Positions 38,731-60,000 of a stretch of DNA of 64,000 bases are shown here, in pieces; positions within the stretch are counted from its first letter, which is position 1, and each line of letters opens with the position of its first letter. The stretch is from the NCBI RefSeq assembly GCF_041886205.1, contig NZ_CP169029.1; one strand, written 5' to 3'. Both the position numbers and the translations under genes were made by a program. This DNA comes from Escherichia coli (lineage in GTDB: Bacteria; Pseudomonadota; Gammaproteobacteria; Enterobacterales; Enterobacteriaceae). The notes beneath the pieces are model-generated. The model was not told the DNA's origin. It worked only from the letters and a program-made list of their open reading frames with translations, and did not search any database.

Positions 38731-41701
<2,971 letters not shown>

Positions 41702-41871: not shown

Positions 41872-44178
41872 TCAATACAACTCATCAAGTTTTCTCATCG
41901 CTTGTTCCCGTATTGCGCGCGTCTTACCGTTAAGCGCCAGCTGGCGGACTAAATCCAGTTCAGGGTTAACAAGCTCTAACGCCAGCAAAGGATCACGTTT
42001 CAGCCTCGCCTTTAATACATCAACTGGAAAACGGGGATTATTCATCGCCACAATCCACCACTCGGGATCAATTTCTGCCGCCAGTACTGCAGGCGGTGTG
42101 TGGCGGTTGTTAAGTGCGCCGAACTTGAAAAATGTGAGATTGCTTTTCGCCAGTGTACTCCACCATATACGATCCGGTTGTTTTGCCAGTACATCCAGTT
42201 GTGCTAACGCATCGGGGTCGAGTGCATAATAAACACGTAATGCTTCATCAACCTGCGCACGGGAGCTGTTTTCCTGCCTCAGAAAAAACTTCGCCCAAAT
42301 ATCATTGCGTGGCGTATTTTGCTGTAATTCCTTGAGGACAACAGCGGGTAAATTATCCCAACTAACTAATGCACTCTCTAAAAAGTCCCAGTCTTCCAAA
42401 CGTATCAGGGCGGTGGCATTTAATAGCATCTGGTCATCAACTTCACCGTGGCTGATAAGCTCAGACAAAATCATATCAGCGCTGGTTTCATATGCAGCTG
42501 AATCTGCTTTCGGATTATTTTTCCGATGTGATAAAGCACGTTGCCAAATTTTTTGTTTCATCGCCGTACTCAGATACTGATTTTTCGCCAGATTACTCCA
42601 CCCCTCAGGATCGTTGAAACGTGTCAATAACCGTTGTAAAGCAGCGTCAGAGTGAATTACCTGCATATCCCGACAGCAAAAGTAGGCAGGGGATTTTTTC
42701 TCCATCCTTTTAACAAAATTAAACTGTAAGTTATCTGGCAACGCTAAAAATAACGCACCTATTAGATCATCGTCATTCTCGAATTTTTGGTATAAATATA
42801 CTGCTATTTTGTCACTCTCTTGTGGCGTCATCCGCAACAATTGACCATGGTGTTTCATCTCTGCCAGCTTTAACGCTAAGCTTGTGACAACATCGTTTGA
42901 TGAATCGTTCGCCAACTGCATTGCCTGATTGTAGGTGAGTTGTCCTCCAGCACCGACCTGACGAATAGAGGAATCATCACTGCGGATATAGCCATCAATA
43001 ATGGATTCGGGCAATAACCACGCATCTTTATAAAGCTCCTGAATGATCATATCCCAATCTCTTTTCGCCAGAGTCATGACGATATCCAGAGGGAGATTTT
43101 CACGTAGCGCAAGATTCAACGGACCGACACCATCAGGTAGATGACTCATTCGCGTCATTATTTCGACAGAGAGCGGTTCACGGTCGAGCAACCCCAGAAC
43201 AACAGGCTGGTAACCCAATTGCTGATCGGTCAACTCCAGAATCTCATTGTCCGGCATATATCTCGCCATACTTTCAATCGTTTGTTCATCATTGCTATTA
43301 ATAAGTTGTTTGCGTAGGTTAGCTGAAATTCCTTTAAGCCTTGGGAGAGTTCGCATTATGGCAAGATCAAATGTCGCAATATCTCGTCCTTCAAATGCAG
43401 CAACGTTGCCTTCATCCAGCATTTGCAATTCCTGCACTAACTCAGGAGAAGGCTTAGGGCGAAACAGCGCTTCTTTTTTCATCTGATTACAGACATTCCC
43501 TGCCATGCGAATATTGCTTCGCTTAAAAATTTCTTTCAGAGCATCTTCATCATTTATTCGACCCTAATAATATGCATCAGGATTTATTATCATCAGCGCT
43601 TTTTTGACATTTTCAGTGTCATTTTTGTCACTCGCACGGACCATGAATTCACTATTTGTCGAAGACGCAACAACAGGTGCAATTATGTCATTGATAAATA
43701 TCCCACGCGCATTAATACTCCCCTTAATCGTAGACGGATTATCGTAATATGAGTCGATAAATACCAGTCCACTTGCATTTATCGAACCGGTAATTAACAG
43801 TGGCGAATCTGTAACTATATTTGTTGCCGTCACGTTACCGAGAATAACCCATGGATTAGAAAGAGAGAAAGTGGAAATATTACCTTTGACTGTCAAATTG
43901 CCAAGAACAATCAATTTTTGATTACTCTCTATATTACCTTCTACCACTAAATCGCCACGATGCACTTTCCAGTCCGATGCAGATAAACCGAAGGGGACAA
44001 GATTCACGCTACTGTTGATAGCTTGTTCAACTTGTTGTTTATCTTCAGCGGTAGCTGCAGATAAAAATGGTTCAATATCAACTGCATTTGCAACACATCG
44101 AAGTTCCGCCTGTACTGGAAGACTCAGCATAAACAGGGGAAGTAAACCTATCCAGCTGCAAATCCTGGGCTTAAACAT
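41872..44178 (-). pseudogene. ydbD: ydbD (DUF2773) split by in-frame amber codon into 204/206-aa and 544-aa ORFs
   Basis: ORFs 43564..44184 and 41872..43506 are in the same frame, separated by TAG at 43564..43566 and 19 open codons; total matches a 768-codon frame from ATG 44178. Confidence 0.65.
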
Positions 44179-44241
44179 ATGCACTCCATGCCATTAAAAA
44201 AGAAACAAAAGGGAAATGCATCTTTCCCTTTTGTATATTCG

Positions 44242-45102
44242 TTATTCTCGCGAAATACCATCCAACGTAGACAACACTTCCTCAGAAAGATGCAATTTTT
44301 CAGCAGCCATATTCTCCCGTAAATGCGCAACAGAAGATGTCCCTGGGATCAGCAAAATATTCGGTGAACGTTGTAACAGCCACGCCAGCGCCACCTGCAT
44401 GGGTGTTGCACCCAGGCTCGCAGCAACATCCGACAGCGTAGAGGATTGCAGCGGTGTAAAGCCCCCGAGCGGGAAGAACGGCACGTAGGCAATGCCATCG
44501 CGGGCCAAAGCATCAATCATTGCATCATCCGCACGATGAGCAATGTTGTATTCGTTCTGCACGCAGACGATTTCGGCAATCTTGCGTGCCTCTGCAACCT
44601 GCGTCGGTGTGACGTTGCTCAGGCCAATATGTTTTACCAGACCTTGTTGTTGCATCTCAGCCAGCACGGTCAGGCTGGCCTCAATCGATCCTTCCGCTGG
44701 GCCATGACCATCCCCCATCATAACGCGCAGGTTAACCACATCCAGTACGTCCAGGCCGAGATTACGTAGATTATCGTGCACCGCTTTTTGCAACTCTGCC
44801 GGAGAAAAGGCGGGCAACCAGGAAGCGTCCTCTCCACGCCGCGCACCAATTTTAGTGACAATTGTCAGGTCGTCAGAGTAAGGATAAAGCGCTTCGCGGA
44901 TAATCTGATTGGTGACGTGCGGACCATAAAAGTCGCTGGTATCAATGTGATTGACGCCCAATGCCAGCGCCTCGCGCAGCACAGTTATAGCGACGTGGCG
45001 ATCTCTTGGGGGACCAAAAACCCCAGGACCTGCCAGTTGCATCGCGCCATAACCAAGACGGTTAACGGATTTTGTACCGAGAGTAAATGTATTGCTGCTC
45101 AT
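44242..45102 (-). CDS. ydbC: Aldo-keto reductase YdbC, 286 aa
   Basis: ORF 44242..45102; AKR family sequence. Confidence 0.9.
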   Translation of the reverse strand: MSSNTFTLGTKSVNRLGYGAMQLAGPGVFGPPRDRHVAITVLREALALGVNHIDTSDFYGPHVTNQIIREALYPYSDDLTIVTKIGARRGEDASWLPAFSPAELQKAVHDNLRNLGLDVLDVVNLRVMMGDGHGPAEGSIEASLTVLAEMQQQGLVKHIGLSNVTPTQVAEARKIAEIVCVQNEYNIAHRADDAMIDALARDGIAYVPFFPLGGFTPLQSSTLSDVAASLGATPMQVALAWLLQRSPNILLIPGTSSVAHLRENMAAEKLHLSEEVLSTLDGISRE

Positions 45103-45256
45103 CGCACCCTGCCCTGTAATAAAACGGATTAAGAAAAATCAGTATAGAAACGAAAAGAGATAAATAATGCGAAGGTGTAAACAAGATTACTGGATGAGTT
45201 GCTCTATTGTCCTGAAAGACACCAAAACAAAACGCGTCAAGTACCGCATCCGGCAA

Positions 45257-45289
45257 TAAAAAAACCGCAACCTGTATCAGCGTTGCGGT
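45257..45289 (-). terminator. Rho-independent terminator for ydbA
   Basis: Minus-strand hairpin CCGCAAC...GTTGCGG followed by UUUUUUU, 20 bp after ydbA stop. Confidence 0.6.
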
Positions 45290-45310
45290 TTAGGGATCAC
45301 ATGCTAAAAA

Positions 45311-48300
45311 TTAGAACGTTTTCTTGAAGTTCAGCATCACGCCTTTGTCGCTGATGCCGTCCTCTTTCCAGTTGTACGCATCCAGATTCAGCGAACTTTC
45401 TTTGCTGCTGTACTTCACGCCGACGCTTGCCAGGCTGTTAATGCCGCCGCCCTTCTGACCGTCATCGACGTTAAAGTGCTGACTGCCTGCGCCTGCCAGG
45501 CTTGCCGTACGCTGGCTCTTCGCGTAGCTCAGGTTCGGCCCGCCTTCCAGCGTGGCGTTCGCACTCCAGCCGTCTTTTCCTGCATAATCCAGCTTCAGCC
45601 CGACGATGCTGTCCACCGCCGTTTCGCTGCCGCTGTTCATATTCAGGTTAAAGTCTCCGGCGTTACGCTCCTTATAGCCACCTTCCAGTGTGTGACGCAG
45701 TTTTACACCCGCATATGGCGTAACCTTCAGTCCTTCGCTCGGTTCGAAAGTCTTCGCTCCTTCGCTACGGAACTCCAGGTACTGCTGCTTCACGTCGGTA
45801 TCAGCCGTTTTGTTCGTGTTGCTAAATGCAATCGAGCGGCTGCTGTCAAGGTTGTGAACGTCGTAACGCAAGGCGTTATTCCAGTTCATGCCATTGTCGA
45901 AGGACATCTGATGTTTCAGGCCAAAGAACTGGCTATAACCGCCTGTAACGCCATTATCACCCGCTTTCTGCGCACCATCACCATCGAGACGAGCGATACC
46001 GTACTCCAGACTCATCGTCTGGCTTTCGCTCAGGTCGATGGTTTTACGCAATGCCAGCATGTCGTATTCGGTATTATTACCTAACTCGGCACGCGGATCG
46101 CCTTTCGCGACAACGTTGAACGCCAGACCGTTACCTACCTTCGGTGCGGCATCCGCCAACATACTAAAGCGGTTGCTTAACACGCGCGCTTCGCGGAATA
46201 CCGTGGTCGCCTGGCTACCGCTGACCTGTTTCAGAGCGCTGTTCAGTTCAGCAGTCGTGCCGACGTTCAGGCTGGTAAACAGTTCGTTGTTGGTGTAACC
46301 CGCATCCAGTGCTTTCGCGATGTCATTCACCGAAGCATCTGTTGCCACATCGGTATAAGCGTTTTTGCTCATGGTGACGTCAACGTTACCGCTGGCATCG
46401 GTGCTGCCTTTAGCAGTCCATACCACGGAGGTTGAGGTGATAGCATCCGCGTCGGTCAGGTTGCTGCCCTCCACCACGTTATCAAAATTAACGGTGGTGT
46501 CTGCCGTACAAGCGGTAAACCCGGTGTTGATCCCCACGCCGTTCATGCTGGCATTGTTGACCCTGAGCTTACCGGCGCTGCCATCGGCACTCGTTCCCAC
46601 CACGTAACCGTTGAGATTATTCATGCCGCCATCAACTGCATCACTTCCCGGCGTTAGGCTAACCGTAGTGGGATTCGGTACATCCGGCAACGTATAGTCG
46701 CCATAATGCAATTCCGTGTTATTACCGTTGTTACCGTTCACGCCTTCAACATTGACGCTGTCGCCCTGCTTAATCAGCCCCGATCCTGTCACGCCATCCG
46801 CAATGACCACCGTGCCGTTGTTGACCACGTGACCTTCTGTACCCAGCACGCTGAATGCAAACGAGTCATTGGCGAAGATATTGATGGTGCCGTTGTTCTC
46901 GATCACCGCATCCGCCGTGGCGTTAGCATCGAGTTGCATACCGATCATGCCCGTATCGGTAGTGCCCTCTGTACCGAGGTTGATGGTGCCAGTGTTAACC
47001 AGTTGCGCATTCTTATCACCTTCCATAGCCACAGCACCGGTGCCGCTGATATTCATCGTGCCGTCATTCTGCGCAATGAAGTTACTGTGAGTGAATTTCA
47101 CGGCGCTGGTACTGTCGTGGTCGAAGTTGATGACCCCGTTATCCAGATTCCAGAAGAATGCGCTCTGATCGCCAGCGTTATTGGCGCTCACCACCAGCGA
47201 CTTCGCAGAGACATCAATCGTTCCATCGTTGATAAAGCGACCATTCCCACCCCACATATTGACAGCACCGTTATGTGAGGAATTACTGATGTCCATGTGA
47301 CCAGTGTTATAAAGCGTACCGGACTGATTAATATGCACAGCATTCTTGTTGTTATCGAGGATAAACTCACCGCTGTTATTGAAGACGGCGTTGTTATTAA
47401 CTTCCAGCATACCTGCGTTATTGCCGCCACTGCTACTACCGAGGCGCCAGGTTCCTTCGTTATTGACCCAGGCATCACCGGTTAATGCAGAACCATTGTC
47501 CACTTTGCCATCTTGTAGGTTATTAAAGATGCCACTGGTCTGAATAATACGTTTACTCACCGTACCACTGTTATTAAAGACGCCGGATTTTTGCACAACA
47601 TTGCTAATAGTACCGGAGTTGTTCACCAGATTAGTGCTAGCCCCAGCATACATTGTCACATTACCGTTGATGGTACCCTCATTATTGAGTACCCCCCCCT
47701 GAGCATCAATATTACCCATCGAGCCAGCATTATCTATTACAGCATCTGGTGCCAATTTCACCATGGAGTTAATAATCCCCGTAGAGGCATTTTCGAGCGT
47801 ACCACTCCGAACGTTAATATCACTACCAGAAGCCGTCCCCGCATTAATAACGCTTCCGGGCACTGCGTCAGTTATCACCACAGAATTAATGAAGTTTGTC
47901 GACTCACCATCTGCCACCAGGATATCACCACCAGAGTATTGCAATGAGACATAATTATCGCCCTGGTTATATTCATCCGCACTCTGACAAATACCAAAAG
48001 TACAGAACCTGCCATAGTTAATAATTATTCCTGTTCCATCGCTGTAAAATGCCTGGCCGATATTTGTATCGATATTAATTACACCCGTTATATCATTAAT
48101 TGCCATACCACTATTAATTGCACCCACCGCGAACAGCTGGTTCTCTTGCTGCTTCGTCACGCCCTCATCTGCGGTGAGGTTGATTGTCCCCTGGTTGACA
48201 ACGGTCCCGCCGCTCATCGCCAGCATACCGAAACCTTCGTTATTAACATTGATGGTTCCGGTATTTAACCCACTGGCATCGCCATTTCCGATATCGGTTG

Positions 48301-51196
48301 ACCCCACAAGAACGCCACCGGACATAAGATAAGGATGGGACGTTTGCCAGTAGGATTTACTGATGATATTACCATCGCTGTCCAGTTCGGGAATAAAGCC
48401 ATCGACATTGATTTCCCCGGCGTTGGTCGCCGTGCCTTTAGATGCGGCGACGGCATAAATCCCCGCCCCCTGCAGATTCATGGTGGCGTCGGATTCATTG
48501 ATCACGCTGCCATCATTACTGGCCCACAGACCATAGTTGGCACCGAAATACCATTTCAGAGGGGCTTCAGATATCCCTCCGGCAAAAGCAGGCGTCGTTA
48601 CAGAAAGCAGATTTATCACGCCACCCGACGCATTCGTAACCTGAGAATTCTGGCCACGAGCACGCATTGTCCCCACCGTGGTGAATTGCTCACCGCTAGG
48701 TTTGACATTAATAGTTCCACTATTAGTGATATGTGCACCATTGTTAGCCATCATTAAATCCTGGCTATCCAGCGTGTTAATCACACCTTTGTTTTCAACG
48801 CCGGACTGACTGCCAGTAGCAGAAATAAGCGCACGATTATCGAAGAAATAGTCGGTATCTCTGACTTTACTGGATATATCCGTTACAGAGTTTTTATCAA
48901 ATATAACATTTCCACCGTCCGCCACCGTGACCAACGTAAAGGCACCCACTACCTGACGGATATCCATAGTTGAATGGCCACTAATGTTAACTGTATTATC
49001 ACCAATAATTGATATACCATCTATGATATGCGCGGAGCTATCCCCAGCAACATTAATACCACCATCGATATTAATGGTATTATTCGTACCGGAAACGACC
49101 ATGCCATTCGCCAAGTGATCTTGATATATTAATACACCTTCCACCGTAATATTAACATGACCACTAATATCCACCGTGTTATTTTCACCACTGATCACGC
49201 CGCCGCTTATCGGAGTGATTTGTGCATCAGCGTTATCGCCGAGACTGGAATTAATATTAATGCTTCCGTCAACGCTAATATGGCTGTCATTACCCGTCAG
49301 GCTGAAACCTGTAGCACCCGGCGCATTGCCTTCGCTATCTGGTTGCTGGAATACGTTAATATCTCCGCTTAATTCAACCTGCTCACGGTCACCCACAATG
49401 GATACCCCAGTTCCGTATCGCGAAACATCAATTTCGCCCACGTTACCAAAAACTTCATCATCACCATCTATCAGAACTCCCACAGAACCGGAATCCGTAA
49501 CAACAATCTTGCCTTTATTACTTATCTGCGAGTTATTACCGGCGATATAAATACCCGTTGCCCCTCCGCTGACGTAGAGGTCACCTTCCTGGCTAATTGT
49601 TGCATTGTGCCCAGCAACTTTTGTCCCTACCGCATTCTCACCGTCAACCGTCATATCCCCGGCGATATTCATCTCATTGCCATCGCCAGTGATGGTTATA
49701 CCGGTGGCATTCTCACCCAAAATATTAAGATCATAGGTCGCCAGGGTAATACTATTGTTGTCGCCGATAATCTCCATGCCGGTTGTATCGTCTTTAACCA
49801 ACATCGAGCCAGCAAGCGAAATACTGCTGCTGTCCCCGGTGATTTTTACACCAGTACCGTTATTTGTCGTGGTGATGTCCCCCACATTGACAAAGGTAGT
49901 ATTATCACCATTGATTAACACGCCATAGGGGTTTCCATCACCGTCCGCCTGACCAACATTGATATCACCAATGTTCATAAAGGTTGTCTGATCGCCATCC
50001 AGCAACACACCGATGGAACTGTCATCCACCACAGTAATATTACCTTTATTACTGATGACAGTACCCTTACCCTCGGCGTCAATACCGTGTGCGCCACCGC
50101 TGACGTATAAGTCACCCTGCTGCCTTACAATGGCATCTTCGCCGATAATTTTTGACCCCGTTGAATTTGCACCATCAACGGTCATGTCGCCTTTGATTTC
50201 AACGCGGGCATCATCCCCTGTAATCACACTCCCCGTGCCTCCATTCGCGATTTCAACATCACCAACGGTGTCCAGCGTGGTACGATCGCCATTAACAATA
50301 ACTGCCGCCCCACCATCAACTTCCGTCTCACCATTATTAGTAATGGTGATATCATCACCGGTAAGAATACCTACCACCGAACCTTCACCAATCGCGGTAG
50401 TTTTGCCATCGTTGTTCAGGGTGATGTCGTTACCGTCAACGTTTATCACAACGCCGCCATTCAGCGCGATGTTGCCGCCATGGTCGGTAATAGTGGCATC
50501 GTTAATATGGAAATGTTCGCCAGTTGTACCGTCTGCGGTGGTGAGTGACTCTATGATTATTTCGATTTTTCCCGCTTCGTCATAGCGCCAGGTGGAGGTT
50601 CCGCCAGGATTGACGCCATTGAACGAAGCCGTGTTAGCCGCCTCGTCGACTAACCAATCCTTCACGATTGTGGTAGTGCCGCCAGGTCCGGTAAGCGTAT
50701 AGCTGCCATCGTCATTTTTGGTGTAGGTAAAGGTGGTATCACGTAATTTTAGGGTCTTCGCGTCCTGATCCCAGGTGACATCGTTTTTATAGACCACAGG
50801 ATCGTGTTTGACTGGCGTGTCATCGCCACCGTCGTCCGGGGTATCATCGCCGCCATCATCCGGCGGGACAGGTGTGTCGCCGCCATCATCCGGCACCGGA
50901 GACGGATCGTCATGATGATTATTATTATCGTGGAGTGCATATACTGCGACGCCTGTGACTGCCGCTGCCAGCCCCACTGCAGCCCAGGGTAATAACTCAT
51001 TATCTTCAACTGATTTACACTCTGCCGGCAGCTTTTCTAGCTGTTCTTTACTTAGTGATTTAATATTAGCCGGGCAGCTAATCTTGCTGGATTTACGAGA
51101 TTCATCCGATGTTTCCGCTATCGACGTATCTGCCGCCCATGTCTGACTGCTTAACGCCATTGCAACACAGACACTGAGCAATTTTTTCCTTTGCAT
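45311..51196 (-). CDS. ydbA: Intact autotransporter YdbA, 1961 aa (signal peptide, repetitive beta-helix passenger, C-terminal beta-barrel)
   Basis: Single ORF 45311..51196; signal peptide MQRKKLLSVCVAMALSSQTWA; GD/GN-rich repeats; C-terminal barrel ending KKTF; SD GAGGA upstream of ATG. Confidence 0.85.
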   Translation of the reverse strand: MQRKKLLSVCVAMALSSQTWAADTSIAETSDESRKSSKISCPANIKSLSKEQLEKLPAECKSVEDNELLPWAAVGLAAAVTGVAVYALHDNNNHHDDPSPVPDDGGDTPVPPDDGGDDTPDDGGDDTPVKHDPVVYKNDVTWDQDAKTLKLRDTTFTYTKNDDGSYTLTGPGGTTTIVKDWLVDEAANTASFNGVNPGGTSTWRYDEAGKIEIIIESLTTADGTTGEHFHINDATITDHGGNIALNGGVVINVDGNDITLNNDGKTTAIGEGSVVGILTGDDITITNNGETEVDGGAAVIVNGDRTTLDTVGDVEIANGGTGSVITGDDARVEIKGDMTVDGANSTGSKIIGEDAIVRQQGDLYVSGGAHGIDAEGKGTVISNKGNITVVDDSSIGVLLDGDQTTFMNIGDINVGQADGDGNPYGVLINGDNTTFVNVGDITTTNNGTGVKITGDSSSISLAGSMLVKDDTTGMEIIGDNNSITLATYDLNILGENATGITITGDGNEMNIAGDMTVDGENAVGTKVAGHNATISQEGDLYVSGGATGIYIAGNNSQISNKGKIVVTDSGSVGVLIDGDDEVFGNVGEIDVSRYGTGVSIVGDREQVELSGDINVFQQPDSEGNAPGATGFSLTGNDSHISVDGSININSSLGDNADAQITPISGGVISGENNTVDISGHVNITVEGVLIYQDHLANGMVVSGTNNTINIDGGINVAGDSSAHIIDGISIIGDNTVNISGHSTMDIRQVVGAFTLVTVADGGNVIFDKNSVTDISSKVRDTDYFFDNRALISATGSQSGVENKGVINTLDSQDLMMANNGAHITNSGTINVKPSGEQFTTVGTMRARGQNSQVTNASGGVINLLSVTTPAFAGGISEAPLKWYFGANYGLWASNDGSVINESDATMNLQGAGIYAVAASKGTATNAGEINVDGFIPELDSDGNIISKSYWQTSHPYLMSGGVLVGSTDIGNGDASGLNTGTINVNNEGFGMLAMSGGTVVNQGTINLTADEGVTKQQENQLFAVGAINSGMAINDITGVINIDTNIGQAFYSDGTGIIINYGRFCTFGICQSADEYNQGDNYVSLQYSGGDILVADGESTNFINSVVITDAVPGSVINAGTASGSDINVRSGTLENASTGIINSMVKLAPDAVIDNAGSMGNIDAQGGVLNNEGTINGNVTMYAGASTNLVNNSGTISNVVQKSGVFNNSGTVSKRIIQTSGIFNNLQDGKVDNGSALTGDAWVNNEGTWRLGSSSGGNNAGMLEVNNNAVFNNSGEFILDNNKNAVHINQSGTLYNTGHMDISNSSHNGAVNMWGGNGRFINDGTIDVSAKSLVVSANNAGDQSAFFWNLDNGVINFDHDSTSAVKFTHSNFIAQNDGTMNISGTGAVAMEGDKNAQLVNTGTINLGTEGTTDTGMIGMQLDANATADAVIENNGTINIFANDSFAFSVLGTEGHVVNNGTVVIADGVTGSGLIKQGDSVNVEGVNGNNGNNTELHYGDYTLPDVPNPTTVSLTPGSDAVDGGMNNLNGYVVGTSADGSAGKLRVNNASMNGVGINTGFTACTADTTVNFDNVVEGSNLTDADAITSTSVVWTAKGSTDASGNVDVTMSKNAYTDVATDASVNDIAKALDAGYTNNELFTSLNVGTTAELNSALKQVSGSQATTVFREARVLSNRFSMLADAAPKVGNGLAFNVVAKGDPRAELGNNTEYDMLALRKTIDLSESQTMSLEYGIARLDGDGAQKAGDNGVTGGYSQFFGLKHQMSFDNGMNWNNALRYDVHNLDSSRSIAFSNTNKTADTDVKQQYLEFRSEGAKTFEPSEGLKVTPYAGVKLRHTLEGGYKERNAGDFNLNMNSGSETAVDSIVGLKLDYAGKDGWSANATLEGGPNLSYAKSQRTASLAGAGSQHFNVDDGQKGGGINSLASVGVKYSSKESSLNLDAYNWKEDGISDKGVMLNFKKTF
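50818..50896. repeat. Imperfect tandem repeat (three ~24-30-bp units) encoding Pro/Asp/Gly-rich linker in ydbA
   Basis: Repeated TCGCCGCCATCATCCGG units encoding PDDGGD(D)TP x3. Confidence 0.6.
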
Positions 51197-51597
51197 ATGA
51201 AATTCCTCATAAATAGATGATTACGCAGCCCAGATAAACTGCACAGGGTTAAATAGTTACAAATATTCGAAATCTGGATATTGTTTTTAACAGAATAAAT
51301 ATATTGATTTAGCGAATGCATTTATTCATTAAGTCAATACATCTTTTCTTTAATTTATATTTTTAACGCATTTATTTCAACTTAAAATATGACGCAATTG
51401 AGATTAAATCCGATAACACTGATGAATTAAATAATGCAATTAATTCATGAAATAAATAAATTATCATGTGAATGAAGCATTCATCATCGGCATCTATATG
51501 AAATTAAATGAAAAATAATTCTCAATAGCATTGCAGTTAATATTGAATATTTCAGGAGGTACAACCAGGCAGATTTTTCTCGACGAATACCGACTTA
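51197..51597. promoter_or_regulatory. Highly AT-rich 400-bp intergenic region upstream of ydbA (probable promoter / nucleoid-protein-bound region)
   Basis: Long AT-rich tracts between ydbL stop and ydbA start. Confidence 0.4.
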
Positions 51598-51924
51598 TTA
51601 TTTTTGCAACCACATTCCGTTTATCCCGCGAATGTATTCTCCCGGCTTAGCTTTTGCTACCAGTTTCTGCCCCGCCAATTTTTCCACTTCCGCAACCGGC
51701 AGATTATTTTTCATGGCGAGTTGTTGATAGCTCTTATTACGCGATTCATTAATCCTTTTGACTAACATCTGTGTTTCGGTATCCGCCTTTAATGCAACCA
51801 GATAACCATTATACGTTTCGCCAACACGCCCCTGAGTTCGAGCGTCATCCAGCGTCAGAGCCATCGCACTGGTGCTAAATAAGGCATTAATGACAAAACA
51901 CAGTATTAAACTTCTCTTCATCAT
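51598..51924 (-). CDS. ydbL: Periplasmic protein YdbL (DUF1318), 108 aa
   Basis: ORF 51598..52002; ATG at 51924 (MMKRSLILCFVINALFSTSAMA signal peptide). Confidence 0.8.
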   Translation of the reverse strand: MMKRSLILCFVINALFSTSAMALTLDDARTQGRVGETYNGYLVALKADTETQMLVKRINESRNKSYQQLAMKNNLPVAEVEKLAGQKLVAKAKPGEYIRGINGMWLQK

Positions 51925-51928
51925 CGCC

Positions 51929-52114
51929 TCAGAAAAGATCGCTACGAGTTTCAAGCAGCTCTTCGACATCTTTGTCTGCCTTGATGATGATCTCATGCTC
52001 AATTTTAACGTTCATATTGATAGTGATCGGTTCCTTAGGTGCAGCGACTTCAATGCGAGGCGTACAGCCAACCAGCATAAAAGATGACGTCAACGCAGCC
52101 AGTAAAATTTTCAT
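51929..52114 (-). CDS. ynbE: Lipoprotein YnbE, 61 aa
   Basis: ORF 51929..52114; lipobox LVGC; start overlaps ydbH stop. Confidence 0.8.
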   Translation of the reverse strand: MKILLAALTSSFMLVGCTPRIEVAAPKEPITINMNVKIEHEIIIKADKDVEELLETRSDLF

Positions 52115-54750
52115 TGTTTTTCCTCACACTCTTTTCCTTGCGGACAGTCATTTCCCGGCAGACGTGCGTTCTGCTCCAACCATGCCTGGAGATTATCGCC
52201 AAAGCGTAAACTGCGCCACAGCGTAAAAATATTCTCTTCATGATGGTAATTAAGGTTTACCGTACCGCTTTTACCATCAACGCGACTGGTACCTGTAATG
52301 TTGGCCTGCATGGTTAATAAACCGAGATTATCTAAATTAATATTTGTCGATGAACGGCTAATTTCCATATAGCGCAACCAGTTAATTGCTGAACCCGCAG
52401 TCATATTGTCTTTCACCACCGCATCTGCGGTGTCTTTATCCAGCCGCAAGGTCATTGGCCCGCTATTTGCCAGCCAACCATCTTTCACTATCCATTTTTC
52501 GTTGTTTAGCCATAACGGCAATGCACCACTAAATGCCCCGGACATGGCGAATTGTTTCGGATTGACGGCGCTAACCAGTTCGCTGGATGAGAGATTATTC
52601 AGCCGCAACAGCGCCGAGTCATGTTGCGGCATACGTAATTGTTTCATCAGTACGTTACCGCCTAACACATCGACGCTAACATCAGTCAACAGTAATGGTT
52701 CTTCTTCAGTCCACGGATAACGCCCTTGCAAATCAGCCGTAATATTTTTCGCTGTCACCAGATTAATCACTTCGGCAATTCGCAACGTAACGGGGCCGCG
52801 AGTCCCCAGATGCCAGGCTCCATCGGCAAAACGGAAAGGCAGGACAAAATCGACACCGTTAACCTGATTATCTGGCATCCAGGCACTACCGCCTTTCAAC
52901 ACGCCGTGCCCTCCCGCGCGGAATCCTTGTTCAGGCGCAGCAGAAAATGCAACCTGAGCATACAGTTCACCATCGCGTAAGTTCATCTTCCAGTCGGGTG
53001 GCACCAGCGGCTGGAATACAGTCAGTGATTGTTTAGGCCACCAGGCGTTACCGCGCAGACGAATACCGTCCCAGCGACCATTTACCCGAACCGGGCCAAT
53101 CTCACCAGCATGTAAATCGCCTTTAAAGAGGAAATAGGTCGGATCGCGCCCATCGACGCTAAATTTTAAGGTTGATGGCGGTAACACACTGCCGCCAGTG
53201 AACAGCGTTTGCCCGGCGTCCAGTGACAGCGCGCCGCTAAAAGAGGGATGCTGTGCGTCACGTACCCAGACGACGGGCTTGTCGAGAATTAATCGCGGCT
53301 TTTCTACCGTCATCGTACCGTATTGTAACTGGTCGAAACCGGTGGAGAGATCGGTCAGTGTAATCGTGCTGTCATGCCACTCACCCTTTCCTGCGACATC
53401 CCAGGTGGCATTCATCGGTGTAAAACTGCCTTTTCCCCAGTAGCGCCACTGCCAGCGGCCAGCGTCAGGGAGAAAATCATTCGCCAGCCCATCCATATGC
53501 AGCACGAAATCGCCCAGTTCATTTTCATGCGCCTGCAAAATGGCCTGCAAACGTCCGTCAACACCACGTTGGGTGACTTTTACACCCGCTAAAGGCCAGC
53601 GGATTTCATCGATGTCCAGCGAATCGATGACTCTTCCCTTCGAACGTAATAACGCGCCGGGCTCAAAGGCCAGCGTTGGGTCAGTCAGACTTCCACTTAG
53701 CTGCGCGGGTAAGCGGGCATATAAAATGAGGTCCGCCTGTTTCGCTTCACCGGTCAGCTGTAAAGGCAGCTGGCTGTTATCCATGCTTAATTTTCCTGGG
53801 CCAAAATTAAGCACCGCGTTGCCCTTACCCGCTTGCCCCTGGGTCAGCACACTCAGTCGTCCGCTGACCAAAGCGTTCTCAAGCCCTGCCTGCCAGTTGT
53901 CGACTTTGACACCCAGTCGGCCACTCAAAGGAAAACCTGCATACGGCCAGCTCCAGCGACCATCGCTTACGGTCAATTGTTGACGAGTAATTTGCCACGG
54001 CAAATCGAGCAACGGATCGCCGTTATCCCGTGCCAGCACGATCAATTGCCCGCTATTTTCCTGCCAGTCCAGCTCGGCATCCACCAGTGACGGTTCCTGA
54101 GGCAAGTTTAACGTCGCAGTAGCATGACCACTTACAGGAAGTCCATCCGGCACTAGCGGCATAGTAAATTCCCCCACCAGTTTTACCGGCGGCTGATTTT
54201 CAAACGCGACGACATCCAGTTCGCTGACTGTAAGTTGTTGCCCTTTCAGCTGGCCTTGAAATTTAACTTTTTCGCCCTGATAACGCAGTTGCTGGATATC
54301 AGAGGTTAATGCGAGAGAGAGTTTTCCCTGCCATTCCTGCCAGGGAGAAAAAATCAGTTTATCGATATTGATCCAGGTGTTAGGCAGCATGGACTGCCAC
54401 TGCGCGAGGGTTTTTGGAGCAGCTGGCGATTGCTCCGTCTGCGGCAATTTCGCCAGACAAGCAGAATCAAGTTCTACCGTGCCGACGTTCAATAACCAGC
54501 GGCTCGAATGTGAAAGGCTGGCGTTGGTGATATGCGCAAGCTGACAATCTCCCACCAGATAACGGAGATCGGGAATGATTAAACCTTTACGCGTAATGCG
54601 TGGGCTTTCATCTAATGCAATACGTGTCCCGAGCGGTAGCCAGATGCCCGCCAGTGTGGGAACCCACAGCCCGAGCGTCATCAGCAGCGTCAACGGCACA
54701 AGAATAATCAGTAATAACAGCGCGAGAACGGCTTTATATTTACCCAGCAT
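52111..54750 (-). CDS. ydbH: AsmA-family envelope protein YdbH, 879 aa
   Basis: ORF 52111..54750; N-terminal TM anchor, large periplasmic beta-rich domain. Confidence 0.9.
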   Translation of the reverse strand: MLGKYKAVLALLLLIILVPLTLLMTLGLWVPTLAGIWLPLGTRIALDESPRITRKGLIIPDLRYLVGDCQLAHITNASLSHSSRWLLNVGTVELDSACLAKLPQTEQSPAAPKTLAQWQSMLPNTWINIDKLIFSPWQEWQGKLSLALTSDIQQLRYQGEKVKFQGQLKGQQLTVSELDVVAFENQPPVKLVGEFTMPLVPDGLPVSGHATATLNLPQEPSLVDAELDWQENSGQLIVLARDNGDPLLDLPWQITRQQLTVSDGRWSWPYAGFPLSGRLGVKVDNWQAGLENALVSGRLSVLTQGQAGKGNAVLNFGPGKLSMDNSQLPLQLTGEAKQADLILYARLPAQLSGSLTDPTLAFEPGALLRSKGRVIDSLDIDEIRWPLAGVKVTQRGVDGRLQAILQAHENELGDFVLHMDGLANDFLPDAGRWQWRYWGKGSFTPMNATWDVAGKGEWHDSTITLTDLSTGFDQLQYGTMTVEKPRLILDKPVVWVRDAQHPSFSGALSLDAGQTLFTGGSVLPPSTLKFSVDGRDPTYFLFKGDLHAGEIGPVRVNGRWDGIRLRGNAWWPKQSLTVFQPLVPPDWKMNLRDGELYAQVAFSAAPEQGFRAGGHGVLKGGSAWMPDNQVNGVDFVLPFRFADGAWHLGTRGPVTLRIAEVINLVTAKNITADLQGRYPWTEEEPLLLTDVSVDVLGGNVLMKQLRMPQHDSALLRLNNLSSSELVSAVNPKQFAMSGAFSGALPLWLNNEKWIVKDGWLANSGPMTLRLDKDTADAVVKDNMTAGSAINWLRYMEISRSSTNINLDNLGLLTMQANITGTSRVDGKSGTVNLNYHHEENIFTLWRSLRFGDNLQAWLEQNARLPGNDCPQGKECEEKQ

Positions 54751-54957
54751 GGGTAGTTAATATCCTGATTTAGCGAAAAATTAAGCATTCAATACGGGTA
54801 TTGTGGCATGTTTAACCGTTCAGTTGAAGGTTGCGCCTACACTAAGCATAGTTGTTGATGAATTTTTCAATATCGCCATAGCTTTCAATTATATTTGAGA
54901 TTTTGTAAAATATTTTTAGTAGCTTAAATGTGATTCAACATCACTGGAGAAAGTCTT

Positions 54958-55947
54958 ATGAAACTCGCCGTTTATAGCACAAAACAGTACGACAAGAAGT
55001 ACCTGCAACAGGTGAACGAGTCCTTTGGCTTTGAGCTGGAATTTTTTGACTTTCTGCTGACGGAAAAAACCGCTAAAACGGCCAATGGCTGCGAAGCGGT
55101 ATGTATTTTCGTAAACGATGACGGCAGCCGCCCGGTGCTGGAAGAGCTGAAAAAGCACGGCGTTAAATATATCGCCCTGCGCTGTGCCGGTTTCAATAAC
55201 GTCGACCTTGACGCGGCAAAAGAACTGGGGCTGAAAGTAGTCCGTGTTCCAGCCTATGATCCAGAGGCCGTTGCTGAACACGCCATCGGTATGATGATGA
55301 CGCTGAACCGCCGTATTCACCGCGCGTATCAGCGTACCCGTGACGCTAACTTCTCTCTGGAAGGTCTGACCGGCTTTACTATGTATGGCAAAACGGCAGG
55401 CGTTATCGGTACCGGTAAAATCGGTGTGGCGATGCTGCGCATTCTGAAAGGTTTTGGTATGCGTCTGCTGGCGTTCGATCCATATCCCAGTGCAGCGGCG
55501 CTGGAACTCGGTGTGGAGTATGTCGATCTGCCAACCCTGTTCTCTGAATCAGACGTTATCTCTCTGCACTGCCCGCTGACACCGGAAAACTACCATCTGT
55601 TGAACGAAGCCGCCTTCGATCAGATGAAAAATGGTGTGATGATCGTCAATACCAGTCGCGGTGCATTGATTGATTCTCAGGCGGCAATTGAAGCGCTGAA
55701 AAATCAGAAAATTGGTTCGTTGGGTATGGACGTGTATGAGAACGAACGCGATCTGTTCTTTGAAGATAAATCCAACGACGTAATTCAGGATGACGTATTC
55801 CGTCGCCTGTCTGCCTGCCACAACGTGCTGTTTACCGGGCACCAGGCATTCCTGACAGCAGAAGCTCTGACCAGTATTTCTCAGACTACGCTGCAAAACT
55901 TAAGCAATCTGGAAAAAGGCGAAACCTGCCCGAACGAACTGGTTTAA
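54958..55947 (+). CDS. ldhA: Fermentative D-lactate dehydrogenase LdhA, 329 aa
   Basis: ORF 54958..55947; D-2-hydroxyacid dehydrogenase family, NAD-binding GxGxxG. Confidence 0.95.
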   Translation: MKLAVYSTKQYDKKYLQQVNESFGFELEFFDFLLTEKTAKTANGCEAVCIFVNDDGSRPVLEELKKHGVKYIALRCAGFNNVDLDAAKELGLKVVRVPAYDPEAVAEHAIGMMMTLNRRIHRAYQRTRDANFSLEGLTGFTMYGKTAGVIGTGKIGVAMLRILKGFGMRLLAFDPYPSAAALELGVEYVDLPTLFSESDVISLHCPLTPENYHLLNEAAFDQMKNGVMIVNTSRGALIDSQAAIEALKNQKIGSLGMDVYENERDLFFEDKSNDVIQDDVFRRLSACHNVLFTGHQAFLTAEALTSISQTTLQNLSNLEKGETCPNELV

Positions 55948-55953
55948 TCTTGC

Positions 55954-55976
55954 CGCTCCCCTGCATTCCAGGGGAG
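55954..55976 (+). terminator. Probable terminator hairpin after ldhA
   Basis: CTCCCCTG-cattc-CAGGGGAG hairpin after stop; weak U-tract. Confidence 0.4.
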
Positions 55977-56057
55977 CTTATTCAGATAATCCCCAAAGAC
56001 CTTTCATCCTCTATTCTTAAAATAGCCCTGAGTCAGAAACTGTAATTGAGAACCACA

Positions 56058-56480
56058 ATGAAGAAAGTAGCCTCGCTTGTTGCGCTAAGCCTGCTGATGG
56101 CGGGATGTGTAAGTAGTGACAAAATTGCTGTAACGCCAGAACAGTTACAGCATCATCGCTTTGTGCTGGAAAGCGTAAACGGTAAGCCCGTGACCAGCGA
56201 TAAAAATCCGCCAGAAATCAGCTTTGGTGAAAAAATGATGATTTCCGGCAGCATGTGTAACCGCTTTAGCGGTGAAGGCAAACTGTCTAATGGTGAACTG
56301 ACCGCCAAAGGGCTGGCCATGACCCGTATGATGTGCGCTAACCCGCAGCTTAATGAACTCGATAACACCATTAGCGAAATGCTGAAAGAAGGTGCACAAG
56401 TGGATCTGACCGCGAACCAGTTAACGCTGGCAACCGCGAAACAGACATTAACTTATAAGCTAGCGGATTTAATGAATTAA
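56058..56480 (+). CDS. hslJ: Heat-shock lipoprotein HslJ, 140 aa
   Basis: ORF 56046..56480; ATG at 56058 (MKKVASLVALSLLMAGC lipobox). Confidence 0.85.
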   Translation: MKKVASLVALSLLMAGCVSSDKIAVTPEQLQHHRFVLESVNGKPVTSDKNPPEISFGEKMMISGSMCNRFSGEGKLSNGELTAKGLAMTRMMCANPQLNELDNTISEMLKEGAQVDLTANQLTLATAKQTLTYKLADLMN

Positions 56481-56743
56481 TAGCTGCCACAGCTCCCGGC
56501 GGCAAGTGACTGTTCGCTACAGCGTTTGCCGTTGGGTAATGCACACATCCCAATCGCCGTACCATCCAGTTGACGGGCAACAGAAAGCGAACCGCCGATC
56601 ATTGCACAATTTGCTTCTCCACTACTGGACATCGACGCTTTTAAACCTGGCGCTACGTGCGCCGCAGTCGCCTGCTGAACAGGTTCACTACTACACGCCG
56701 ACAACAATAAAGCGGCACCCCCTACCCAAAACGCTGCTCGCAT
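56477..56743 (-). CDS. ydbJ: Lipoprotein YdbJ (DUF333), 88 aa
   Basis: ORF 56477..56743; signal peptide with lipobox LSAC. Confidence 0.8.
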   Translation of the reverse strand: MRAAFWVGGAALLLSACSSEPVQQATAAHVAPGLKASMSSSGEANCAMIGGSLSVARQLDGTAIGMCALPNGKRCSEQSLAAGSCGSY

Positions 56744-57016
56744 CTTTTCTTCCTCTGATCTTCAAGCCAAACGACACCGCCATAAATAATAGGCAGCACA
56801 GAGGGCGACGTCGAGAGCTGTCCTGCGCGTTGCCCCGCATTTTTACTTTTTTATGGCTATTTTTTTGCCCTCTGTTTGATCAAAACATTCATTACGCTGA
56901 TGTGGGGGACACAAAAGCGAAAATGCAGAAGAAAGCCATTTGCTAAAATTGAAAGATTACTACTGGGCGCGCAGCAATTTCGTGCGCCCCTCATTTGCGC
57001 AATGTAAGGGTGTCAT

Positions 57017-60000
57017 ATGATTACTATTGACGGTAATGGCGCGGTTGCTTCGGTCGCATTTCGCACCAGTGAAGTTATCGCCATCTACCCTATTACCCCC
57101 AGTTCCACGATGGCAGAACAGGCTGATGCCTGGGCCGGAAACGGCTTAAAGAACGTTTGGGGAGACACACCACGCGTGGTTGAAATGCAGTCGGAAGCGG
57201 GTGCTATCGCTACCGTGCATGGCGCTTTGCAGACGGGTGCCCTTTCAACATCGTTTACGTCATCGCAGGGTTTGCTGCTGATGATCCCGACGCTGTACAA
57301 ACTGGCAGGCGAACTAACACCGTTTGTCCTGCATGTAGCGGCACGTACCGTTGCCACTCATGCACTCTCTATTTTTGGCGATCATTCCGACGTTATGGCG
57401 GTGCGCCAGACGGGTTGCGCGATGTTGTGTGCAGCAAACGTCCAGGAAGCGCAAGACTTTGCTCTCATTTCGCAAATCGCGACGCTGAAAAGCCGCGTGC
57501 CATTTATTCATTTCTTTGATGGTTTCCGCACGTCCCACGAAATCAATAAAATTGTCCCGCTGGCCGATGACACGATTCTTGATCTCATGCCGCAGGCCGA
57601 AATTGATGCTCATCGCGCCCGGGCGCTCAACCCGGAACATCCGGTGATCCGCGGTACGTCCGCCAATCCTGACACTTATTTCCAGTCACGCGAAGCCACC
57701 AACCCATGGTACAACGCGGTCTATGACCATGTTGAACAGGCGATGAATGATTTCGCTGCCGCGACAGGTCGTCAGTATCAGCCGTTTGAGTATTACGGGC
57801 ATCCGCAAGCGGAACGGGTGATAATCCTGATGGGCTCTGCCATTGGCACCTGTGAAGAAGTGGTTGATGAATTGCTAACCCGTGGCGAAAAAGTCGGCGT
57901 GCTGAAAGTTCGCCTGTACCGCCCCTTCTCCGCCAAACACTTGCTACAAGCTCTGCCGGGATCCGTACGCAGCGTGGCGGTACTGGACAGAACCAAAGAA
58001 CCCGGTGCCCAGGCAGAACCGCTCTATCTGGATGTAATGACCGCACTGGCAGAAGCCTTTAATAATGGCGAGCGCGAAACTCTGCCCCGTGTCATTGGTG
58101 GGCGCTATGGTCTTTCATCCAAAGAATTTGGCCCGGACTGTGTACTGGCGGTATTTGCCGAGCTCAACGCGGCTAAACCGAAAGCACGCTTTACGGTTGG
58201 TATTTACGATGATGTAACCAATCTGTCACTACCGTTGCCGGAAAACACCCTGCCAAACTCGGCGAAACTTGAAGCCTTGTTTTATGGCCTTGGTAGTGAT
58301 GGCAGCGTTTCCGCGACCAAAAACAATATCAAGATTATCGGTAATTCCACGCAGTGGTACGCACAGGGCTATTTTGTTTACGACTCCAAAAAGGCGGGCG
58401 GCCTGACAGTTTCTCACCTTCGCGTGAGCGAACAGCCGATTCGTTCCGCTTATCTCATTTCCCAGGCTAATTTTGTTGGCTGCCACCAGTTGCAGTTTAT
58501 CGATAAATATCAGATGGCTGAGCGTTTAAAACCTGGCGGCATTTTCCTGCTCAACACGCCGTACAGCGCAGATGAAGTGTGGTCGCGCTTGCCGCAGGAA
58601 GTTCAGGCCGTGTTAAACCAGAAAAAAGCGCGCTTCTATGTGATTAACGCGGCGAAAATCGCCCGCGAATGTGGCCTGGCGGCCCGTATTAATACCGTCA
58701 TGCAGATGGCTTTTTTCCATCTGACGCAAATTCTGCCTGGCGATAGCGCCCTCGCAGAATTGCAGGGTGCGATTGCCAAAAGTTACAGTAGCAAAGGTCA
58801 GGATCTGGTGGAGCGCAACTGGCAGGCTCTGGCGCTGGCGCGTGAATCCGTTGAAGAAGTTCCGCTGCAGCCGGTTAATCCGCACAGCGCCAATCGACCA
58901 CCAGTGGTTTCCGATGCCGCTCCTGATTTCGTGAAAACCGTAACCGCGGCGATGCTCGCCGGGCTTGGTGATGCACTCCCCGTTTCGGCGCTGCCGCCAG
59001 ACGGCACCTGGCCGATGGGCACTACGCGCTGGGAAAAACGCAATATCGCCGAAGAGATCCCCATCTGGAAAGAGGAACTTTGTACCCAATGTAACCACTG
59101 CGTTGCCGCTTGCCCACACTCAGCTATTCGCGCAAAAGTGGTGCCGCCTGAAGCGATGGAAAACGCCCCTGCCAGCCTGCATTCGCTGGATGTGAAATCG
59201 CGTGATATGCGCGGGCAGAAATATGTCTTGCAGGTGGCACCGGAAGATTGCACCGGTTGTAACCTGTGCGTCGAAGTTTGCCCGGCGAAAGACCGTCAGA
59301 ATCCAGAGATTAAAGCCATCAATATGATGTCTCGCCTGGAACATGTCGAAGAAGAGAAAATCAATTACGATTTCTTCCTCAACCTCCCAGAAATCGACCG
59401 TAGCAAACTGGAACGTATTGATATTCGTACATCGCAGCTGATTACACCGCTGTTTGAATATTCCGGTGCTTGTTCCGGTTGTGGCGAGACGCCGTATATT
59501 AAATTGCTGACTCAGCTCTATGGCGACCGGATGTTGATCGCTAACGCCACCGGCTGTTCTTCAATTTATGGCGGTAACCTGCCCTCTACACCGTATACCA
59601 CCGATGCCAACGGTCGTGGGCCGGCATGGGCGAACTCTCTATTTGAAGATAATGCCGAATTTGGCCTTGGTTTCCGCCTGACGGTCGATCAACACCGTGT
59701 CCGCGTGCTGCGTCTGCTGGATCAATTTGCCGATAAAATCCCGGCGGAATTACTGACGGCGTTGAAATCAGACGCCACGCCAGAGGTTCGTCGTGAACAG
59801 GTTGCAGCTTTACGCCAGCAACTCAACGATGTTGCCGAAGCACATGAACTTCTACGTGATGCAGATGCACTGGTGGAAAAATCAATCTGGCTGATTGGTG
59901 GCGACGGCTGGGCTTACGATATCGGCTTTGGCGGTCTGGATCATGTATTGAGTTTGACGGAAAACGTCAACATTCTGGTGCTGGATACGCAATGCTATTC

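Follow-up and report, generated by a model that had tools for sequence, protein, structure and literature searches.

What became of the nineteen kilobases that separate ydbL from ydbA in Escherichia coli K-12, when in another E. coli chromosome the two genes are neighbours? Could their junction be the scar of a deletion or the site as it stood before any insertion, or is it neither of the two? In K-12 (NC_000913.3) the ydbL stop at 1446206 and the ydbA start at 1465392 lie 19,185 bp (19.2 kb) apart, and the interval holds 17 genes, feaR, feaB, tynA, paaZ, paaA-K, paaX and paaY, together with ynbG. The original prediction, made from the letters alone, had given this gene order, had placed ydbL directly beside ydbA across a strongly AT-rich spacer of about 400 bp with the catabolic cluster absent, and had proposed that the junction is either an ancestral empty site or a deletion scar. 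That order agrees with the K-12 record, and the adjacency without the cluster is confirmed by open reading frames, homology and tblastn on the window, by which we mean the whole 64-kb stretch of DNA analysed here. The window contains the ldhA-ydbH-ynbE-ydbL-ydbA-pdxI region of E. coli in reverse orientation relative to K-12, with the following features around the junction.

52111-54750, minus strand: ydbH, 879 aa, part of the conserved flank, assigned by open reading frame and homology (99% amino acid identity to K-12 YdbH) and annotated as ydbH in strain wlxctx60.
51929-52114, minus strand: ynbE, 61 aa, the final gene of the conserved flank, 100% identical to K-12 ynbE in amino acids and in nucleotides.
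51598-51921, minus strand: ydbL, 107 aa, a rare divergent allele of the DUF1318 family (Pfam PF07027, E=1.7e-29).
51197-51597, no strand assigned: the AT-rich spacer of 401 bp, from the ydbL stop to the ydbA start, 27% GC.
45311-51196, minus strand: ydbA, an intact gene for a probable autotransporter of the BigA family, 1961 aa, with Pfam BigA_N and BigA_beta.
47465-51925, minus strand: the core of a divergent haplotype (the 5' 3.7 kb of ydbA, the spacer and ydbL), of which 47465-51599 has no blastn match to K-12.

The predicted length and composition of the spacer proved accurate: its GC content contrasts with 49.5% for the window, it overlaps the lowest-GC 401-bp frame of the window (51180-51580, 26.2%), and only 0.08% of frames lie below the spacer's own frame. 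When K-12 proteins were compared with the 64-kb window by tblastn, no orthologue of FeaR, FeaB, TynA, PaaZ, PaaA, PaaK, PaaX or PaaY was found, the sole matches to proteins of the cluster being two distant aldehyde dehydrogenase paralogues at 32-37% identity. As a genome-wide proxy we used a composite query that joins the spacer and ydbL to 600 nt each of paaA and tynA. Among the 60 junction-bearing genomes listed, this query matches exactly one place in each, so paaA and tynA are absent elsewhere in them and the spacer is present as a single copy. These 60 genomes include eight that match the window at 99.9-100% in the flanks, and strain wlxctx60 (NZ_AP045833.1), which is 99.97% identical to it across 41200-64000. 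The search by proxy for paa and tynA thus bears out the predicted absence, and so does the alignment to K-12, in which the flanks are conserved, the fea-paa block is missing and a divergent segment is sharply bounded.

In itself the absence of the cluster is nothing unusual: strains are on record as differing in it, at a locus that bears an autotransporter and is prone to recombination. The genes paaA-E are present in 3,154 of 5,426 complete E. coli genomes, leaving 42% without them. A region of heterogeneity has been described between ydbH-ynbE-ydbL and ynbC-ynbD-azoR, with the cluster present in about 80% of phylogroup A genomes (PMC4951805), and tynA-negative strains include O157:H7 (by PCR), neonatal-meningitis isolates and CFT073 (PMC4640556).

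How, then, is the junction itself built? The surroundings are those of K-12: nucleotide identity is 97-100% per 100 bp across ldhA, ydbH and ynbE and 98% at the ydbH 3' end, and PdxI is 99.7% identical. The ldhA-nifJ segment is found at 95% identity or more in 5,412 of the 5,426 complete genomes. At the start codon of ydbL this likeness breaks off, identity falling from 100% in ynbE to 68% within about 30 bp. From 51599 to 47465, that is through the spacer and the 5' 3.7 kb of ydbA, no nucleotide similarity to K-12 was detected at all; identity then recovers gradually, to 76-91% from 47464 and to at least 95% from about 46460. With flanks that are 98-100% identical to K-12, this is an abrupt drop in identity bounded by near-identical sequence, the pattern of an allelic replacement. 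The position on the chromosome is the same as in K-12 MG1655 (b1383-b4492), with ldhA, ydbH and ynbE on one side and pdxI and ydbD on the other, and in both an AT-rich tract (330 bp, 25% GC in K-12) stands directly upstream of ydbA. K-12 differs in that 19.2 kb and 17 catabolic and regulatory genes take the place of 401 bp, and in that IS2 and IS30 interrupt its ydbA; the window's copy is intact.

Beyond ydbA the window has further lesions. About 10 kb from the spacer, at 41507-41515, a deletion has taken out 1.6 kb (K-12 1477816-1479416), so that the 5' end of ynbA now runs into ynbC and ynbB is gone, with a short microhomology of the TCCGT type at the junction; the same two ynbA/ynbC pseudogene fragments are annotated in wlxctx60 and in strain PT62. 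The gene ydbD (41875-44178, minus strand) is an apparent pseudogene as well, its longest open stretch covering 563 of 768 codons, and an internal stop is noted in the wlxctx60 annotation.

YdbL is a periplasmic partner of YnbE. The window YdbL shares 63.5% of its amino acids and 68.8% of its nucleotides with the K-12 form. More broadly, nucleotide identity between the window gene and the other Escherichia ydbL genes compared is 66-69% in every case, against 75-88% among those genes themselves, and in a tree of YdbL proteins the window sequence falls outside all those of Escherichia, Citrobacter and Salmonella. A protein search of 5.8 billion sequences returned E. coli members at 96-99%, one variant at 90% and one chimera at 72%, and nothing closer. 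The 90% variant, on Logan contig L011, has the same layout with a spacer of 399 bp. Divergent as it is, the window allele keeps the residues reported to be essential, namely L24, R28, E35, Y40, N58, R61, Y65, L68, N72, K86, L87, W104 and K107, and its R90K is a change reported as tolerated; at position 60 it has E60S, the tolerated changes there being E60A and E60D (bioRxiv 10.64898/2026.03.16.712125). It also carries I79V. Beside an invariant YnbE, E. coli as a whole has several YdbL alleles that are only 63-72% identical to each other: the K-12, Sakai and window types, and others such as P0075, P0108 and P0114.

The product of the downstream gene in this haplotype, YdbA, has Pfam BigA_N and BigA_beta domains above their cut-offs and matches NCBIfam auto_BigA (NF033178) over its full length at 1329 bits, below the 3400-bit cut-off of that model; at E<=0.001 no autotransporter barrel (PF03797) appeared in the window protein. 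Its amino acid identity is 55% to a reconstructed K-12 YdbA and 67-69% to proteins of E. ruysiae and Escherichia sp. Length and sequence of the gene vary also among carriers of the haplotype. A linker near the N-terminus rich in Pro, Asp and Gly (50847-50894, PDDGGD-like) is polymorphic in length, being 300 bp longer in wlxctx60, which shows no other notable difference from the window across 41200-64000, and 150-200 bp longer in the group of 5.0-5.3-Mb genomes described below (for instance B20105 and 7/2) than in the window. The central passenger region, at 47600-50290, is hypervariable, and against B20105 it is 67-88% identical or unalignable. In wlxctx60, ydbA is annotated as a pseudogene, whereas it is intact in the window.

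How widespread is this haplotype, and does it move? The junction of the window type occurs in 114 of the 5,426 complete genomes. Those listed fall into two groups. One comprises about nine small genomes (4.6-4.8 Mb) from varied hosts, with spacer and ydbL 98.8-99.9% identical to the window; the other is a larger set of 5.0-5.3 Mb, several with the strain name '405', in which the same segment is 98.2% identical. The two groups differ by about 2% inside the shared part of the haplotype and by as much in the flanks, and since the difference is the same inside and outside there is no sign of a recent transfer. The middle of ydbA is far more different between the groups, and ydbA is itself a mosaic. 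Direct evidence that haplotypes recombine comes from a chimeric ydbL on an ENA metagenome contig (L012 39-365), the 5' third of which is of the window type and the rest of the K-12 type, followed by feaR-feaB-tynA; its crossover lies inside a conserved stretch of 16 nt.

A source outside these genomes was sought in several collections. The divergent segment has no match in plasmid or phage collections. The 5.8 billion protein sequences and the GTDB species representatives yielded no donor lineage; among the latter, a YdbL query returned nothing closer than 64%, with Citrobacter (64%) and Arsukibacterium (37%) as the only genera. The haplotype may thus be an import from outside, an old polymorphism or the outcome of fast evolution within E. 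coli.

Several other states of the same locus lend themselves to comparison, and in total the ydbL-ydbA locus occurs in at least five structural states. Like the window, O157:H7 Sakai has ydbL (ECs_2005) next to an autotransporter, BigA-like/BigB-like ECs_2006/2007, across a spacer of 413 bp with 27% GC and without fea, tynA or paa. Unlike the window, Sakai encodes a YdbL that is only 64% identical to that of the window, its spacer cannot be aligned with the window's, its autotransporter is annotated as two genes, and its divergent block reaches into ynbE and the ydbH 3' end, where that of the window starts at ydbL. The Sakai junction is present in 374 of the 5,426 genomes. In the Sakai segment (L004 12227-13308), ynbE is 82% and the ydbH 3' end 92% identical to K-12 in nucleotides; with 92-95% identity, E. 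marmotae, E. ruysiae and E. albertii all resemble this ynbE more closely than K-12 does, a sign that the Sakai type may stem from an import between species.

Two further states retain the sequence of K-12 on both sides. In strains such as Iso00225 and SK1144 the paa cluster is likewise missing between ydbL and ydbA, yet remnants of feaR and paaY and flanks of the K-12 type are kept, and the junction, at a 4-bp microhomology, is a real scar. In Iso00225, which served as positive control for the remnant search, 252 bp of feaR and 340 bp of paaY are left; about 823 of the 5,426 genomes match this feaR'-paaY' scar over at least 80% of the query. APEC 16-1068 and the type strain DSM 30083 resemble the window in having ydbL, one short AT-rich spacer (375 bp) and ydbA, but their spacer consists of 64 bp from the ydbL side and about 310 bp from the ydbA side of K-12, with which the window's spacer is not colinear. 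This clean junction with K-12 flanks is present in an estimated 200 or so genomes (1,036 minus 823). Measured against the APEC junction, the block specific to K-12 (L003 5272-24085) amounts to 18.8 kb, and its edges are clean and intergenic, because the APEC spacer is colinear with both outer parts of the K-12 intergenic regions. A hexamer, GAAACA, lies at or near both edges of the K-12 block (L003 5266-5271 and 24054-24059) and may represent microhomology or chance.

Insertion sequences have entered the locus too. ETEC1730, a paa-positive strain, has an element of the IS91 family between ynbE and ydbL (L007 10261-11813). In PT62 an IS1-associated deletion has removed ydbL, ydbA, pdxI and the 5' part of ydbD, so that ynbE adjoins IS1 (L026 8183-9000); since this strain lacks ydbL, the gene is dispensable in a natural isolate.

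Outside E. coli, with few genomes compared per species, E. ruysiae and Escherichia sp. show the same arrangement as the window: no paa genes intervene, and a tract of 405-406 bp (23-28% GC) separates ydbL from an intact ydbA that encodes about 2060 aa. Among those compared they contain the closest full-length relatives of YdbA from another haplotype or species. They differ in their ydbL allele, about 70% identical to the window's in amino acids, and in a spacer that is unalignable. In E. albertii, E. marmotae and Citrobacter amalonaticus, ydbL is followed directly by pdxI, with neither ydbA nor paa, and in S. bongori it is followed by ynbA. Across the ydbA alleles, the AT-rich tract of about 400 bp upstream of the gene is thus kept in length and composition and not in sequence.

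Which history accounts for the junction in the window? The original prediction was right in part: the site does look unoccupied and not scarred, but as a separate divergent haplotype and not as the empty allele of the K-12 flanks. A simple deletion, in which feaR through paaY were lost by an illegitimate or microhomology-mediated event that left the 401 bp behind, would have precedents, as such scars with their 4-bp microhomology are common here in other strains (the roughly 823 genomes above) and the window itself has suffered a genuine deletion between ynbA and ynbC. Yet tblastn of the K-12 cluster proteins on 51101-51700 detected no remnant of a cluster gene (best E=0.44), and the spacer aligns with neither K-12 intergenic region. 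The adjoining ydbL and 5' part of ydbA are moreover at least 30% divergent, which a deletion cannot produce. The direct repeats that were looked for at the junction turned out, like the inverted ones, to be pairs of AT-rich low-complexity sequence, with no target-site duplication or att-like repeat, and a tandem-repeat finder returned nothing relevant. We regard a scar as extremely unlikely. That the window displays the unoccupied version of the fea-paa insertion site, allelic to the K-12 flanks, is very unlikely too. Such an allele does exist, with clean intergenic edges, in APEC 16-1068 and DSM 30083, but the spacer of the window has no similarity to it, and the window YdbL is 63% identical to that of K-12 as against 97% for the allele common to Iso00225 and APEC 16-1068. 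The lack of similarity is general: with the K-12 ydbL-feaR and paaY-ydbA intergenic regions and with the APEC and Sakai spacers, the window's spacer gave no blastn match and Smith-Waterman z values of at most 1.25. Almost no weight falls on the idea that the catabolic genes lay on a mobile genomic island which was later excised. The strain-to-strain variability of the cluster and the GAAACA hexamer near both edges of the K-12 block would suit such an island; however, neither the window junction (by the annotation of wlxctx60) nor the K-12 block has an integrase, tRNA, IS or att-like repeats, the plasmid and phage collections do not contain the segment, and a 6-mer is within chance expectation.

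A stronger contender is loss by allelic replacement, in which an imported ydbL-spacer-ydbA segment of about 4.4 kb, itself without paa, replaced a K-12-like locus of about 23 kb in a single event of homologous recombination, and the cluster was lost as a by-product. We consider this a real possibility, though one that falls short of even chances. It would explain the K-12-like flanks, with ynbE at 100% and the ydbH 3' end at 98%. The next-closest flank haplotypes, furthermore, are found in strains with ydbL of the K-12 type, the cluster is present in about 80% of phylogroup A genomes (PMC4951805), and recombination between haplotypes is documented by the L012 chimera. Against it, the search turned up no sister genome that combines this background with an occupied site, and the eight closest flanks all have the window-type junction. 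The closest relative of another type found, PT62, has lost the whole segment from ydbL through the 5' part of ydbD to its IS1 deletion, and for that reason does not tell the history of the lineage. As to the haplotype itself, allelic replacement agrees with the explanation that we prefer and differs from it only in the history of this lineage.

In our preferred explanation, which we hold to be likely, the locus is a rare alternative haplotype, deeply divergent and not a scar, that most likely never held the paa block. The haplotype begins at the start codon of ydbL (about 51925), takes in the spacer, and extends to about 47465, fading by about 46460. Homologous recombination would maintain it and exchange it, the crossovers lying probably at the boundary of ynbE and ydbL and within the conserved 3' portion of ydbA. 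The distribution among relatives suggests an order of events: in some members of the genus, ydbA would have been added beside ydbL together with its own AT-rich upstream region; the fea-paa block would later have been inserted between ydbL and the AT-rich tract, in the family of haplotypes to which K-12 belongs, and afterwards would have been lost by deletion in some lineages. The block looks like the later insertion because E. ruysiae and Sakai have ydbA without paa, while E. albertii, E. marmotae and Citrobacter are without ydbA. That the window haplotype never contained the block is accordingly the most likely reading of its past. A bolder extension would treat ydbL, the tract of about 400 bp and ydbA as one cassette that travels in old trans-species allelic lineages, the window's deriving from an unsampled Escherichia-like relative, and in which ydbL is matched to the autotransporter, for example as a periplasmic chaperone, rather than hitch-hiking beside a surface protein under diversifying selection. 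We think this extension improbable.

What might the spacer do in the haplotype that we favour? It would belong to ydbA, for which it carries a ribosome-binding site (the Shine-Dalgarno sequence GAGGAA, 7 nt ahead of the ATG) and probably a promoter and leader. Compared with L011, the most divergent variant available, the ydbL-proximal 201 bp are 75% identical, and two elements stand out on the ydbA side.

51197-51396, minus strand: the ydbA-proximal half of the spacer (200 bp), putative ydbA promoter and 5' leader, 89% identical to L011.
51352-51380, minus strand: a predicted sigma70-like promoter, TTGAAA, 17 nt, TAAATT, from a consensus scan, both hexamers being kept in L011.

Promoter-like sites as such are not in excess, with 2 in 50900-52200 versus 4.3 +/- 2.0 in shuffles; this was a simple scan, whereas promoter islands are defined by PlatProm. 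A terminator scan found no intrinsic terminator after ydbL, so ydbA may also be transcribed by read-through from the ydbH operon. An Rfam scan of 44000-58000 identified no family, and RNA folding of the ydbL-proximal part of the spacer gave no stable structure (z=0.5). The small ORFs that occur in the spacer encode low-complexity peptides of 26-56 aa and were treated as spurious.

An H-NS-bound ydbA promoter in the spacer, likewise proposed in the original prediction, is plausible by analogy with K-12. There, the intergenic region of paaY and ydbA counts among 78 "promoter islands", with H-NS binding listed for it in two ChIP data sets (Panyukov & Ozoline 2013, PMC3661553). The spacer of the window shares with this island its position relative to ydbA and its AT-rich composition; it differs in having no sequence similarity to it, and in the lack of an excess of promoter-like sites in our scan. 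The 10-mer motif of H-NS, with at most 3 mismatches, matches 18 times as against 10.2 +/- 3.1 in composition-matched shuffles, a weak excess. The setting would suit H-NS silencing, being a markedly AT-rich tract upstream of the strain-variable ydbA, and both composition and the K-12 counterpart suggest that H-NS probably binds and silences the spacer.

What does the locus tell us in a wider sense? The absence of a gene relative to K-12 usually reflects ordinary pan-genome variation and calls for caution, and a junction that looks empty can be a third allele, neither a scar nor an ancestral site. Of mild interest is the depth of the allelic divergence in ydbL and ydbA beside a fully conserved ynbE and ydbH. 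For the strain itself, the gene content leads us to expect that it would be unable to grow on phenylacetate or 2-phenylethylamine via the Paa pathway. In strains with the window-type junction, the use of 2-phenylethylamine, tyramine and phenylacetate via TynA, FeaB and Paa should fail, and these strains encode an intact predicted adhesin of the BigA/YdbA type that is missing in K-12.
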